From: Clostridia bacterium
GTDB lineage: Bacteria; Bacillota; Clostridia; TANB77; CAG-508
Assembly: GCA_017613275.1 (NCBI GenBank)
Contig: JAGAED010000003.1
Coordinates: 68,747 to 132,746 of the forward strand
Length of the DNA: 64,000 nt
Direction: 5' to 3'
Every line of letters starts with the position of its first letter. The first letter of the stretch is position 1. This document shows, one piece after another, positions 56,951 to 64,000 of the stretch. The notes below the pieces were generated by a model. The model made no database searches, had not been told where the DNA came from, and saw only the letters and a program-made list of their open reading frames with translations. The position numbers and the translations under genes are program-made.

Positions 56951-59900
56951 ATGAACAAGTTAACTAAAATAATTGCAACATTATTAACTATTATAATAAT
57001 GTGTTTAACCATCATGCCTAATATAAGTTTAATGGCTGAAAGAGTTGAAGAAAGCCAAATAAACAATGAAAACAAAATAGAAGGCAACGAAGAAAAAGAA
57101 AGTACAGATACAAATGAAGAAAATAACACACAAACAGATATAGATGAGTCAAAAGAAGAGCAGAAAGAAACTGAAGAAAACGATGAAGAAAAAACAAATA
57201 CAGTTTCAAAAGAAATACTGGAAAAGAAACCAGAATTAGAACCTGAAACTAATATAGAAACTGCAAAAAAAGTAGCAGTAGACGAAAATAGTATTACATA
57301 TCAAATAAATAAAAATACATACAAAAAAGTCTATTCTGCATATCCAAATACATATGTAGACGAAGATGGTAATACTAAAGAAATAGACAATACATTAATT
57401 AATGAAAACGATACCTACACAAATTCAGCTAACAGCTTTGATGTAACACTACCAAAAAACGAAATAAAAGAAGACAAGCCAATAACAGTTGAGAACAACA
57501 ATCAAAAAATAGAGCTAATACCAACAGAAGGAGATTTTTCACATTCTGTTGCACTAAAAAATGCTGTTAGATACAACAATGTTTTTGATGGTATAGATTA
57601 TCAATATACTTCTTTGAACATTTCATTAAAAGAAGACATTATATTAAATAAACAAGTTGAAAAAAATGAATTCATATATAAAATCAAAGCAGATAATAAT
57701 TTGAATTTCAAACAAGAATCAAATTATGTAATAGTAACAGATGCAGAAGGAAATAGGGTTTATACAATAGAAGCACCAATAATGGAAGATGCAAACCATG
57801 AACTATATGCAGGTTTACAAGTAATTTTAGAAGAAAAAGATGGAGAAAACTATATAAAAATAATAGCAAATAAAGAATGGCTAGACGCACCAGAACGTGC
57901 TTACCCTGTAAAAATTGACCCTACAATAACAGGAAATCAAAATCAACACACTTATTTTGTTCCAGTACAAGAATATGAGCCAAACCTTGAACTTGGAAAC
58001 ATAAACTATACATATGTAGGATACGATAACGGAAAAGCAACAGGAACAGGCGGTTCAGGACATGGAATAGTAAGAATTTACTCAAAAATAAATATGGGGG
58101 ATATTCCACAAGATGCTGTAATATCAGAAGCAAGCTATACTGTATATCAAAGGTCAACATTTTATAAAAGAGCAAATAGCACAGGTACTAGAGGAGAAAT
58201 GGGACTTTATGCTGTAACACAAGACTGGAGAGGAAATATGTCTTGGAACAATCAACCATTTGACGGACAAGAATTTATAGACTCACACCAAATACTAGAT
58301 AATGCAGGATACATAACATATAATATTAGAGATTTAGTAAATGACTGGGTACAAGGCACTAAACCTAATAAAGGTATATGTTTAAAAATGATATCTGAAA
58401 ATACAATGCAATGTGAACTAATTGGTTCAGCAGCAGCAGGAAACACATTGAATCCAGCGTGGGCACCAACATTTTCTATTACATATGTAGTACCAGATGC
58501 AGTGGATGAAAATTTAGGATTAAATTCATTAACAATAAATCTTAGACCAATGACAGAAAAAAACATAAGTGGAAAACTACAATTTGATGGTGTTTTTGCA
58601 GATGGAATATCAAAACCAGGAACAATAGTAAATTACTGGATAAATCCATTCGAAGGATTTATTGGAAGAACACTTGCATTTGAGAGATACAGATTCCCAA
58701 ATAGTGAAGGATTCGAAACAGCATTTCCAGAAGCAAATAAATATAAAGATAAAACAAGCAACTGGCAAACTGATGCAATATATACAGCTCCACAATATAA
58801 CAGACTATACAAATTCCATGCACAAGCAGTTGATAGTCAAAACAATACATCGGAAGAAAAAACAAGCGATAGTTTTATTATATATCAAGTTAAGCAAAGA
58901 GATACATTACCATATATTGCAAATTATTATGGAGTGCCATTAAAAACAATAATGAGGGACAACAGAGTGCAAGATACACTTTTAGTTGAAAACAATACAT
59001 TGTTTATAAGAAATCCAAATCAAAATGCAGAAAATCCATACAATCCAGCACCTTTAACAGATGGACAAAAGAAAGAAATAGATGGTGCATTAAGAGGAAG
59101 ACACCTACATTGTGAATATGGATATGAACCTATAAACCTAAATACTGGAAACTTCTATATGTCAAAAACTGATGCATCAATTCCAGAAATAAACAACAAC
59201 TTCACAATCACAAGAACATACAACTCAACAAATGAAGGCTACAATTCAGTATTTGGTAGAAATTGGGACTTTGAATACGCAGAAAGTATAAGCAAACTAG
59301 AAGATGGAACTCTAGTATATCAAAAAGGAGATGGAAAAACATATCATTTTGAAAACGATGGTAATGGTGGTTTTACAACTCCTTATGGTACAAATTTAAA
59401 AATAAAAGAAATAACTTACAATGTTGAAGGAGACTCAGAAACAAGAGTAAAATATGAAATACAAGATGGAACAGAAGAAACTAGAAAATTCAACAGCTAT
59501 GGGTTACTAGAAAGTATTATAGACAAACAACAACATGAAACAAAAATAGAATATAATGCTGAACTTGAAATAAGCAAAATAATTTCTCCAACTGGTAAAA
59601 TATATAAAATAACAATTCAAAACGGAAAAATAACAAAAATACAATTGCCAAACAATGCTATATTACAATACGAATATGATGAAAACAGCAATTTAGTTAA
59701 ATTCATAAATGCAGAAGGAAATGCAGAAACATACCAATATAATGAAAAAAATCAAATGACTGCATGCGTTGATGCACTTGGAGTTACAGCTGTAAGAAAT
59801 GAGTATGATGACCAAGGAAGAGTAATAAAACAATATGATGCCAAAAATCAAATGGTTACATTGCAATATGAAGTAGGCAAAACCATTGCAACAGATGGCA

Positions 59901-62900: not shown

Positions 62901-64000
62901 TAACATCAAATACAGATGAATTGGGAAATAAAAATACTTATAAATATGACTTAAAAGGTCAATTAGTAGAAGTAACAAACGCAAATAATGCAAAAAAATC
63001 ATACACATATGATGTAAATGGAAACGTGTCAACTACAACAGACGAGCTAGGAAATATGAAAAAATATAGCTATGACTTGTTAGATAGACTAGTTCAAGTA
63101 GAAGATGAAAAAACACATAAAACATCATATAAATATGATAGCGTAGGAAACCTAACAGAGCAAACAGATGCAAATGGAAACACAACAAAATACAATTATG
63201 ACCAATTAAGCAGACTAAAACAAATAACAGACGCAAAAGGAAATGTAACAACATATAATTACGATAAATTAAGCAATTTAAAAGAAGTAATAAAACCAGA
63301 CGGAAAGAAAATAAGCTATGATTATGACAAAATAAACAACCTAATAGCAAAAGGTTCAGAACAAGATAAAACTGTTAACAGCATGTACAGCTATGACCCA
63401 ACAGGAAAACTAGTAGAAATGTATGACAACATAGGAAATACATCTTATGAATATGACCAAGTTGGAAGAATATCAAAAGTAACAATACAAGACGGAAAAC
63501 AACTAGAATACAAATACGACGAGCTAAGCAGAATAAGTGAAATTGTTTACCCAGATGGAAAATCAGTAAAATATACATATGATGTGTTAGACAACCTAAA
63601 AACAGTAGTAGATAGAGATGGAAACACAACTACTTATGAATATGATGCTAAAAACAGAGTAATAAAAACAACAAGACCAAACGGAAGCTATACAACAATA
63701 AGTTATAATGAGCTAGATGGAGTAAGCAAATTAGAAAACAACACAGCCGAAGGAATGGTTTCATCATTTGAATACAAATATAATGATAAAGGACAAATAG
63801 TAAAAGAAACAGCAACAAATAAAGAAGTAAAATCAGTAAAAGAATTTGCTTATGATGCAAAAGGAGAGCTAGAATCATTTGTAGAAAACAGAAATGGAGT
63901 AATGATATACACAACATACTCTTATGATAATGTTGGAAATAGAATAAGCAAAGAAGTAAAGAAAACAGACCAAAATGTAAGAACAAACTATACATATAAC
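56951..64000 (+). CDS. Giant secreted RHS/YD-repeat protein with an embedded LysM domain (polymorphic-toxin-like); 3' partial, runs off the window
   Basis: RBS aggagaagggg before the ATG at 56951. Signal peptide 'MNKLTKIIATLLTIIIMCLTIMPNISLMA'. LysM 'YQVKQRDTLPYIANYYGVPLKTIMRDN'. Dozens of YD repeats of the form 'TxYxYDxxGNLxxxTDAxGN'. No stop codon before 64000, so it is missing from the ORF track. Confidence 0.85.
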   Translation, partial: MNKLTKIIATLLTIIIMCLTIMPNISLMAERVEESQINNENKIEGNEEKESTDTNEENNTQTDIDESKEEQKETEENDEEKTNTVSKEILEKKPELEPETNIETAKKVAVDENSITYQINKNTYKKVYSAYPNTYVDEDGNTKEIDNTLINENDTYTNSANSFDVTLPKNEIKEDKPITVENNNQKIELIPTEGDFSHSVALKNAVRYNNVFDGIDYQYTSLNISLKEDIILNKQVEKNEFIYKIKADNNLNFKQESNYVIVTDAEGNRVYTIEAPIMEDANHELYAGLQVILEEKDGENYIKIIANKEWLDAPERAYPVKIDPTITGNQNQHTYFVPVQEYEPNLELGNINYTYVGYDNGKATGTGGSGHGIVRIYSKINMGDIPQDAVISEASYTVYQRSTFYKRANSTGTRGEMGLYAVTQDWRGNMSWNNQPFDGQEFIDSHQILDNAGYITYNIRDLVNDWVQGTKPNKGICLKMISENTMQCELIGSAAAGNTLNPAWAPTFSITYVVPDAVDENLGLNSLTINLRPMTEKNISGKLQFDGVFADGISKPGTIVNYWINPFEGFIGRTLAFERYRFPNSEGFETAFPEANKYKDKTSNWQTDAIYTAPQYNRLYKFHAQAVDSQNNTSEEKTSDSFIIYQVKQRDTLPYIANYYGVPLKTIMRDNRVQDTLLVENNTLFIRNPNQNAENPYNPAPLTDGQKKEIDGALRGRHLHCEYGYEPINLNTGNFYMSKTDASIPEINNNFTITRTYNSTNEGYNSVFGRNWDFEYAESISKLEDGTLVYQKGDGKTYHFENDGNGGFTTPYGTNLKIKEITYNVEGDSETRVKYEIQDGTEETRKFNSYGLLESIIDKQQHETKIEYNAELEISKIISPTGKIYKITIQNGKITKIQLPNNAILQYEYDENSNLVKFINAEGNAETYQYNEKNQMTACVDALGVTAVRNEYDDQGRVIKQYDAKNQMVTLQYEVGKTIATDGNGNQTAYYYDYRHYTTRVEYPNGTNEQKLYDQNGDLIRYKDKSGNIYGYEYDSNHNQTKIIRIDEAISTIEYNEQNLPTKVVDFDGKYVVHEYDSKGNIIKTTNNAGITNQYTYDSQDRLVSRTDPNGNTTTYTFDGANITSITDANGNTSKIYYNAMNQVTGLENAKGEIKRITYNKNGDKTLEQFPDGTTNSYGYDAKGRMVSTIDAKGNKTEFQYDEADNVVKAIKPDGGIITRNYDANKNKTSEIDELGRTTTYQYDSLDRLIKQTDANGNETKYEYDNSNNITKITDALGHSTQMKFNTINNVMLEETDANNNTAKYEYNIIGLLTKKIDKDGLVTEYTYDDANRIKEQKLPTGENITYTYDNNGNVLKIESNSGRNYTYEYDKLNNITKIIDALGNEQTISYDAGQDIKEITDVNGEISKYTYDSMGRVKQVQNQLNNIEKFAYDANGNQSQYTDFNNNNTKYEYDSLNRINKKIDALGNTTKYEYDSIGNLVKETDALGNTIQSEYSVNNQLTKVTDAKGNVYKLEYDGVGNNTKIIDAKGNETILEYDNENQLIKTTNAQGTVTNYEYDAVGRITLTKDSTGNKINYNYDKGRLVKLEDNIGRTIEYEYDLAGNIIKIKNYDDTVTKYEYDLLNRMTKYTDPEEKTTTFEYDKLGNLIQKTDSTERIWKYEYDKLGNIKKSTDPQNAVTSFEYDANNNLLKTINPLGKSKTYTYDALNRITNMLNENEAETQIGYDALSQITSVQKPEGGIITRQYDANKNLIKEIDELGNETKYSYDELDNLVQATNPNGATTNYEYDVIGNITKITDALGNVTNNKVDANGLLQEKTLANGAKYTYSYDEAKRLTKVSAPEGVERTFKYDKADNIVEEIDGNGNSTKYEYDIMKRLKGVTNANGNKTSYEYDEKGNLSSVVDAKGAITKYEYNIVDELEKQVDPTGVVTTFEHDVLGNVTKQDRSGGKVTTYEYDNVGNLVKSTNALGNSKLFTYNKENQLTSNTDELGNKNTYKYDLKGQLVEVTNANNAKKSYTYDVNGNVSTTTDELGNMKKYSYDLLDRLVQVEDEKTHKTSYKYDSVGNLTEQTDANGNTTKYNYDQLSRLKQITDAKGNVTTYNYDKLSNLKEVIKPDGKKISYDYDKINNLIAKGSEQDKTVNSMYSYDPTGKLVEMYDNIGNTSYEYDQVGRISKVTIQDGKQLEYKYDELSRISEIVYPDGKSVKYTYDVLDNLKTVVDRDGNTTTYEYDAKNRVIKTTRPNGSYTTISYNELDGVSKLENNTAEGMVSSFEYKYNDKGQIVKETATNKEVKSVKEFAYDAKGELESFVENRNGVMIYTTYSYDNVGNRISKEVKKTDQNVRTNYTYN

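Follow-up and report, generated by a model that had tools for sequence, protein, structure and literature searches.

The 64,000-nt stretch of DNA analyzed here (the window; positions 68,747 to 132,746 of Clostridia contig JAGAED010000003.1) ends inside an open reading frame (ORF) that very probably encodes, from the N-terminus, three-quarters of an Rhs polymorphic toxin of the Gram-positive WapA type, in a gut Clostridia bacterium of low GC content. The ORF runs in frame 1 of the translation from the ATG at 56951 to nt 64000, through 2,350 sense codons and no stops, in agreement with the original prediction of more than 2,300 open codons. With a GC content of 29% in the window, stops are expected at about 9% of random codons, and the probability of an open stretch of this length is approximately 1e-99. 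As had also been predicted, the mechanical ORF list does not include it: entries there require a stop codon inside the window, and none occurs before 64000. Judged by the relatives described below, the window ORF would be roughly the first three-quarters of a protein of about 3,100 residues, encoded by a gene of about 9.3 kb and made as a precursor of about 350 kDa. The gene on its 5′ side is hisS (Pfam tRNA-synt_His and HGTP_anticodon), the terminator of which marks the Rhs gene as a transcription unit of its own. The features of the locus are as follows.

56831 to 56864, plus strand: intrinsic terminator of hisS, with a 15-pair stem, a 4-nt loop and a T-run (0.0 expected in shuffled sequences).
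56885 to 56913, plus strand: promoter-like sequence TTGTTA-17-TAAAAT with an extended −10 TG, a consensus match alone (9/12).
56933 to 56944, plus strand: ribosome-binding site AAGGAGAAGGGG, 6–12 nt 5′ of the ATG, as read from the sequence.
56951 to 64000, plus strand: the 5′ 7,050 nt (2,350 codons) of the probable WapA-type Rhs toxin gene, which continues past the window edge for, as relatives predict, about 760 more codons.
56951 to 57037, plus strand: predicted Sec-type signal peptide, aa 1–29, with the cut predicted at SLMA|E by a heuristic reading (helix 2–37 in the model).
57038 to 57235, plus strand: acidic, E/N/K/T-rich disordered linker, about aa 30–95, from composition and from pLDDT below 50 at residues 34–89.
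57248 to 57940, plus strand: all-beta N-terminal domain without an assigned family, about aa 100–330, pLDDT about 90, conserved family-wide.
57974 to 58450, plus strand: DNRLRE domain (CBM96-type beta jelly roll), aa 342–500 (NF033679, E 1.5e-17, 64.1 bits against a cutoff of 34).
58523 to 58870, plus strand: third beta-sandwich domain, about aa 525–640, with strands at 530–627, pLDDT 85–97 and no assigned family.
58883 to 59008, plus strand: LysM peptidoglycan-binding domain, aa 645–686 (PF01476).
59126 to 59155, plus strand: predicted N-terminal autocleavage site E726|PINLNTGNF, an exact motif at aa 726/727.
59126 to 59350, plus strand: DUF6531 lid or plug, aa 726–800 (PF20148, E 2.7e-17, 63.3 bits).
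59351 to 64000, plus strand: YD/RHS-repeat shell, about aa 801–2350, incomplete, with a 21-residue period.
63907 to 64000, plus strand: start of a homology block (…TTYSYDNVGNRISKE…NYTYN), the last 94 nt of the window and the restart point of displaced orphans in relatives.

The original prediction had proposed a signal peptide and a LysM module for this protein, and both proposals held. The predicted signal peptide has the expected layout, with MNKLTK as the n-region, the 16 hydrophobic residues IIATLLTIIIMCLTIM as the h-region and PNISLMA|E at the cut, and aa 1–29 contain the sole hydrophobic segment in 2,350 residues. The LysM match scored 26.9 bits against a cutoff of 20.9, and an AlphaFold model shows residues 642–687 as a beta-alpha-alpha-beta unit. 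Two further domains were not on the earlier list, DUF6531 (aa 726–800) and DNRLRE (aa 342–500), the latter coming from an NCBIfam scan of the N-terminus alone. Searches of the 2,350 residues against Pfam at E ≤ 0.01 returned nothing besides RHS_repeat, DUF6531 and LysM, and the all-beta domain gave a weak Pfam match to DUF7948 alone, below the cutoff. Pfam labels that appeared on homologs (TGF-beta propeptide, THOC3 and EML beta-propeller) were rejected, their scores being far below the cutoffs.

Residues 1–726 align to 34 homologs at 28–91% identity, with many invariant residues that include C721 and E726 and, in the all-beta domain, for example Y117, D146, N147, P191, G194, Q218 and Y219. 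The AlphaFold2 model of the N-terminal module built on that alignment (mean pLDDT 81.5, pTM 0.77) places in order the signal helix, the disordered linker (34–89), the all-beta domain (about 100–330), DNRLRE (about 335–515), the sandwich (about 525–640), LysM (642–687) and a flexible tail leading to the cleavage site. When the model was compared with the PDB by Foldseek, the best compact match was the chondroitin-sulfate-binding carbohydrate-binding module (CBM) 8wab, with a TM-score of 0.69–0.70 normalised to the target, followed by beta sandwiches of the TGF-beta pro-domain and by accessory domains of polysaccharide lyases and glycosidases. These matches fit the status of DNRLRE as a CBM96-type jelly roll; PMC9971899 belongs to the literature on this domain. 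As modelled, the resemblance to the TGF-beta pro-domain is the beta sandwich common to it and the DNRLRE/CBM module. The natural reading of the sequence and the model is that the N-terminal module would serve as a glycan- and peptidoglycan-binding anchor.

The predicted autocleavage site that ends this module is strongly conserved: among 35 sequences, E726 never varies and the conservation of P.N.NTGNF is 90% or more. The DUF6531 domain, to which the role of a lid closing the N-terminal mouth of the Rhs barrel has been assigned (PMC12704120), is followed by the YD-repeat shell. Pfam detected RHS_repeat in 33 stretches (E 1e-235) and NCBIfam detected TIGR01643 YD double repeats in 25, while a regular expression found 47 YD motifs that keep strictly to a 21-residue period from aa 907 to 2323, or about 67 units by spacing, which makes the earlier figure of at least 50 repeats a fair one. 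Sequence comparison with the PDB showed homology of the shell to Rhs shells of solved structure, 7pq5, 8h8a and 7q97 (E 1e-50 to 1e-53). The window ORF carries three of the features of a WapA-type protein, namely a predicted Sec signal, a wall-binding module with LysM and DNRLRE, and a YD shell with DUF6531.

The part of the gene beyond the window can be approached through its relatives. Four loci are 91–92% identical to the window in nucleotide sequence across the gene. They are L001, an ENA metagenome contig encoding a protein of 3,110 aa (P0001; 93% identity); L002, from the goat-omasum Clostridia metagenome-assembled genome RGIG2630, encoding one of 3,132 aa; and L082 and L083, which are JGI and ENA metagenome contigs. 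The closest proteins (3,110–3,132 aa) are 93–95% identical to the window ORF. The hisS-Rhs synteny is kept in three of the four close loci (L001, L002 and L082), and three of the four (L001, L002 and L083) reach the 3′ end, about 760 residues past the window end, all of them full length. More distant full-length orthologs, L003 and L005, are 74% identical in protein sequence to the final 700 residues of the window ORF. The family is larger still, with 118 matches at E ≤ 1e-30, the best-scoring of which are mostly about 3,000–3,500 aa, and it spreads over Clostridia, Lachnospiraceae, Actinomycetota and other groups.

Past the position of the window end, the relatives have the last YD repeats, a hypervariable loop, the Rhs-associated core, a linker and a tip. 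The core (TIGR03696, Rhs_assc_core) scored above the cutoff in all four full-length homologs scanned (L001, L002, L003 and L005), so that the hidden Markov model scan advised in the original prediction recovered RHS_repeat and LysM in the ORF and Rhs_assc_core in these relatives. The window ends about 350 residues short of the relatives' core with its cleavage motif. At its end the core reads …DPLSRNLYLYTKNDPVNYVDPSGH, the double-DP aspartyl-protease signature known from Rhs and Tc toxins, and its last residues are PVNYVDPSGH in L001, L002 and L083. A PxxxxDPxGH-type cleavage motif, DPxG[HM] in the more distant homologs, lies 295–475 residues from the C-terminus in each of the 13 full-length homologs inspected. 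The motif had been anticipated as PxxxxDPxGL; the relatives do have an aspartyl-protease cleavage motif, but it ends in H, as PVNY[VIT]DP[ST]GH, and the strict PxxxxDPxGL expression had no match in them. After the core come a linker of 250–300 residues and a tip of about 140 residues.

The tips are where close relatives part company. Pairwise identity among L001, L002 and L083 is 95–98% over the last 600 residues up to DPSGH, 27–49% in the linker and approximately 18%, which is background, over the last 140 residues. The L001 tip is an AHH HNH/EndoVII nuclease (PF14412, E 1e-16), and the next gene, which overlaps the stop codon of the Rhs gene, encodes Imm11, given as an immunity partner of Tox-AHH in Zhang et al. 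2012 (PMC3482391). In L002, L083, L003 and L005 the tips differ and mostly lack a family assignment, and a distinct small candidate immunity ORF adjoins the stop codon in each case (78, 119, 173 and 91 aa, respectively). The L002, L003 and L005 tips had no match in Pfam, and comparison by sequence with the PDB gave nothing at E ≤ 1 for the L002 tip, the L083 tip or the L083 119-aa ORF. The L083 tip (…IRFSQ…) may be similar to ParB-type nuclease toxins and the 119-aa ORF to SMI1/KNR4 (SUKH) immunity proteins, and the ORF after it may be KptA/Tpt1-like. Tips in the wider family include GH-E, Tox-GHH, AHH, phage-tail lysozyme, nucleotidyltransferase and papain-fold Tox-PL-2 domains. The Rhs core, variable toxin tip and adjacent immunity ORF that had been expected downstream are borne out in the full-length relatives, and the purely structural surface protein named as the contrary outcome was seen in no relative examined. 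The window strain's own 3′ end lies outside the window, and a tip and an immunity gene of its own are supported by orthology with these relatives.

Orphan Rhs or toxin cassettes are present in all three loci that reach the 3′ end (L001, L002 and L083). In L001 and L002, an orphan Rhs fragment lies 3′ of the immunity gene and restarts at TTYSYDNVGNRISKE...NYTYNELNQL. These orphans (L002 15732–15824 and L001 20054–20147) align to window positions 63907–64000 at 94–96% nucleotide identity, and the block starting at nt 63907 is, on this comparison, a likely recombination substrate for toxin swapping. Variable tips, distinct small ORFs and orphans together are, at the level of sequence, the textbook signs of recombination exchanging the tips of a polymorphic toxin. 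The window itself contains the ORF as the only tblastn match to the relatives' C-termini, and no other Rhs pieces, orphan cassettes or immunity genes were found in it by that search.

Two of the relatives show further arrangements near the 3′ end. At L083 4860–6781, 3′ of the third toxin variant, the 119-aa ORF and a 201-aa ORF are followed by an orphan cassette. Its restart point lies within the pre-toxin linker (…LEYQIKELRKLNTEKANAIADKLQEEMKKLCDNDL…), and it has a different C-terminal domain, possibly an amidase-like toxin. This orphan suggests a second candidate recombination block, located in the linker, besides the one at 63907. At L002 19661–22839, a few kb 3′ of the Rhs locus, there are six small same-strand ORFs (118–152 aa) with no Pfam match, two neighbouring members of which are clearly paralogous; this run may be a poly-immunity array.

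The protein can be compared with WapA-CT1 of Streptococcus suis, which exceeds 3,100 aa (about 350 kDa) and consists of a Sec signal, an unknown N-terminal domain, DNRLRE, LysM, the DUF6531 lid, the Rhs barrel, the TIGR03696 core, a pre-toxin and a polymorphic toxin, with an immunity gene downstream (Pan et al., J Oral Microbiol 2025, PMC12704120). Compared by description and motifs, the window protein and its relatives have the same domain order and a similar size. WapA-CT1 is wall-associated, and its killing activity needs the signal peptide and is neutralised by the immunity gene; Edman sequencing placed one cut after E735, so that the product begins with PINLNTGNF, and another behind the H of DPSGH (PMC12704120). 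The N-terminal cleavage sequence E|PINLNTGNF is identical in the window protein, and the DPSGH cut site, the polymorphic tips and the downstream immunity genes are matched by the relatives of the window gene. WapA-CT1 undergoes a second, mid-protein cleavage at TDPSG that splits the shell into Rhs1 and Rhs2 (PMC12704120), whereas no mid-protein [ST]DP[ST]G was found in the 2,350 residues, where DPxG occurs at aa 1108, 1926 and 2149 only, as ordinary YD-repeat turns. Because the mid-protein site is absent, three fragments would be expected here rather than four. In S. suis, SrtB and SecF-like partner genes, cognate and adjacent upstream, are reported as required (PMC12704120). No SrtB sortase or SecD/F was detected among the main ORFs scanned in the 57 kb upstream, in the L001 upstream annotation or in the scanned ORFs downstream of L002, L003 and L005. 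The setting also differs in that the host here belongs to a ruminant-gut Clostridia lineage and the gene follows hisS in the core chromosome.

A second point of comparison, and the older functional analogue, is WapA/WapI of Bacillus subtilis (Koskiniemi et al. 2013, in the reference lists of PMC12704120 and PMC8636562), where WapA is reportedly a Sec-exported, wall-associated Rhs/YD protein that mediates contact-dependent inhibition; its C-terminal toxin varies, and its immunity gene lies next to it. B. subtilis WapA has about 2,300 aa, CWB2-type wall-binding repeats and tRNase toxins. The present protein has DNRLRE and LysM, within a three-domain glycan-binding module, where that one has CWB2 repeats, and would be about 800 aa longer. 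The gene is an ordinary member of this known and recently characterized family, the WapA proteins of Bacillus and S. suis, and only two points are unusual: the S. suis helper genes were not found, and the relatives share a clade-specific transmembrane (TM)-like helix pair, described below.

Taken together with these precedents, the domain order is consistent with the following course of events. The precursor of about 350 kDa would leave the cell via Sec, through its cleavable signal peptide, and would be held on the producer's peptidoglycan or surface glycans by the beta domain, the DNRLRE/CBM-like jelly roll, the beta sandwich and LysM. The YD repeats would form a closed beta-barrel cocoon, with the DUF6531 lid at one end and the Rhs-associated core as a plug, enclosing the C-terminal pre-toxin linker and the toxin. 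Two autoproteolytic cuts, one after E726 and one after DPSGH of the core aspartyl-protease motif, would release both the toxin and the wall anchor. The toxin would then enter an adjacent bacterium and kill it unless the cognate immunity protein, encoded directly downstream, is made; the same protein would guard the producer and its kin. Toxin/immunity pairs would be exchanged by recombination at the conserved blocks (nt 63907 and the second, in the linker), leaving orphan cassettes behind. The protein is most likely used to poison neighbouring bacteria, and the analogy with B. subtilis WapA and S. suis WapA-CT1 suggests that it does so in a contact-dependent manner.

Several points weigh against this interpretation. 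The window stops about 760 codons short, and the strain's own Rhs core, toxin and immunity gene lie beyond it; a truncated or decayed 3′ end in the window strain is possible. The delivery route may differ from that of S. suis, there being no SrtB and SecF-like partners near the locus, and a cocoon of about 300 kDa would, as in the whole family, have to cross or deliver through two Gram-positive walls. A related question is whether the gene in the window strain is a non-functional remnant, truncated or disrupted just past the window end. Its 3′ end lies outside the window, the window edge coincides with the start of the recombination homology block, and Rhs loci are prone to rearrangement and to truncated orphans. 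Nevertheless, 2,350 codons have been kept open at 29% GC, the protein is 93–95% identical to intact orthologs of 3,110–3,132 aa with all the invariant residues of the N-terminal module retained, the expression signals are intact, and the three close relatives whose sequence extends to the 3′ end each encode the complete protein. We consider decay of the gene very unlikely on these grounds. Alternatively, the protein might be a surface adhesin or glycan-binding wall protein directed at plant fibre, mucin or cells, with a teneurin-like structural shell and with toxin delivery absent or secondary. The 700 N-terminal residues do form a conserved multi-domain module with a CBM-like jelly roll and LysM, the shell is weakly homologous to teneurin-like proteins (E 1e-30), and the window sequence itself includes no toxin domain. 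All of the full-length relatives, however, have an aspartyl-protease core, a hypervariable tip, recognised toxin domains and immunity-type ORFs, which would be unexpected in a structural protein, and the S. suis homolog kills other bacteria in an immunity-dependent way (PMC12704120). A purely adhesive function seems to us very unlikely.

One could also envision an effector of a specialised secretion system, either a type VI (T6SS) PAAR-Rhs or a type VII (T7SS) LXG/WXG-Rhs protein, or the BC component of a Tc (ABC) toxin acting on eukaryotic cells. The best homologs of the shell among solved structures are indeed T6SS Rhs effectors (Photorhabdus Rhs1/Tre23, 7pq5, PMC8636562; Tse15, 8uxt; Tse5, 8cp6; E 1e-46 to 1e-53), and Rhs cocoons are common to TcB/TcC. 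The T6SS effectors enclose their toxin, are plugged at the N-terminus and, by an aspartyl protease, at the C-terminus, and cleave themselves twice, all of which is predicted for the window protein, and their N-terminal cleavage signature PVxxxTGE is related to PINLNTGNF. They rely on PAAR/prePAAR, a TM domain, an Eag chaperone or VgrG loading, whereas a Sec signal and wall-binding domains are found here; the shell here is about 1.5 times longer, and their toxin domains are 9–20 kDa as compared with a post-cleavage region (linker and tip) of 390–440 aa in the relatives of the window gene. PAAR, VgrG, LXG, WXG, SpvB and the TcB beta-propeller are all absent by Pfam from the 2,350 residues, the N-terminus being instead a classical Sec signal peptide, by prediction, followed by wall-binding modules. 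The 57 kb upstream are core chromosome, in which no secretion-system genes were found. More specifically, scans of the window revealed no T6SS genes and the ORF has no PAAR/prePAAR; the ORF has no match to the LXG/WXG100 domains of T7SS and does have a predicted Sec signal; and there is no SpvB/beta-propeller in the ORF by Pfam and no TcA-like gene in the window. The FtsK/SpoIIIE protein at 31845–34265, which has FtsK alpha and gamma domains and lies beside sepF and divIVA, looks from its sequence like a housekeeping FtsK rather than EssC. The host belongs to a low-GC Clostridia lineage, and no T6SS is known in Gram-positive bacteria. The relatives end in nucleases and comparable domains, as interbacterial toxins typically do. 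All of this makes the protein very unlikely to be an effector of these systems, and a WapA-type toxin is the interpretation that we prefer.

The loop that precedes the Rhs core in the relatives deserves separate mention. In L001 (about 17200–17500) and L002 (about 13230–13530) this hypervariable loop contains a TM-like helix pair, DIIVYIAIFVASIVVIIMF … AGIGLLTVLVVAGSATIITI. L003 and L005 have an N/G-rich stretch of low complexity at this place, and in 23 other homologs measured the loop is 47–252 aa long, hydrophilic or of low complexity, with no hydrophobic segment. It is conceivable, although we regard it as unlikely, that this Clostridia clade delivers its WapA-type Rhs toxin without the SrtB/SecF-like helpers of S. 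suis and that the clade-specific hairpin is a built-in membrane-insertion device, aiding the docking of the cocoon or the translocation of the toxin across the target membrane. If this is true, the hairpin would be a different solution to the problem of how Gram-positive Rhs toxins enter cells.

Upstream of the Rhs gene lie hisS, an anti-sigma factor, an ECF sigma factor and a 301-aa protein without assignment, and then core genes; the rest of the window is core chromosome (identified genes include gltX, dnaE, gap, queH, dnaG, sigA, mutL, miaA, sepF, divIVA, ftsK, a beta-CASP RNase and hisS). When window positions 50591–54744 are compared with L001 1–8376, the segment between a fragmented Peptidase_M14 gene and hisS is seen to vary by strain: the window has the 301-aa protein and the ECF sigma/DUF4179 anti-sigma pair, and L001 and L002 instead encode GIY-YIG, a YknX/MacB-type ABC exporter and a two-component system. 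By this sequence comparison, 50591–54744 appears to be a variable islet adjoining the Rhs locus. In the window as well as in L001, several short ORFs on the minus strand make up the broken Peptidase_M14 gene, which is possibly a pseudogene.

Other observations concern more distant parts of the window. Positions 40685–42785 encode a RhuM-family virulence protein (E 5e-111) and, after it, a tyrosine integrase and are probably a small integrated element in the core chromosome. At 44798–46523 there are two adjacent BspA-type leucine-rich-repeat ORFs, of 209 and 312 aa, which may be one split surface-protein gene. A 579-aa protein of WG-containing beta repeats (PF14903, E 3e-33) is encoded among housekeeping genes at 12796–14535. 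The 383-aa ORF at 17342–18493 matches ThyX (Thy1) over residues 26–164 only; typical ThyX proteins are shorter than 383 aa. Seven ORFs of 144–528 aa had no Pfam match above threshold (128–1645, 16614–17306, 26631–27065, 31224–31727, 34436–36022, 39800–40459 and, on the minus strand, 42832–44046).

For annotation, the locus carries the message that a real gene of about 9.3 kb escapes ORF tracks that need a stop codon, and the tips and immunity ORFs of the relatives that fall into no family are material for mining. WapA-type toxins were shown in 2025 to shape host-associated microbiota in S. suis (PMC12704120), and with this locus the DNRLRE-LysM-Rhs (WapA-type) polymorphic toxins gain a member from ruminant-gut Clostridia. 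Three strains with shells that are 95–98% identical and three unrelated tips provide a clear natural case of strain-level toxin swapping in gut anaerobes.

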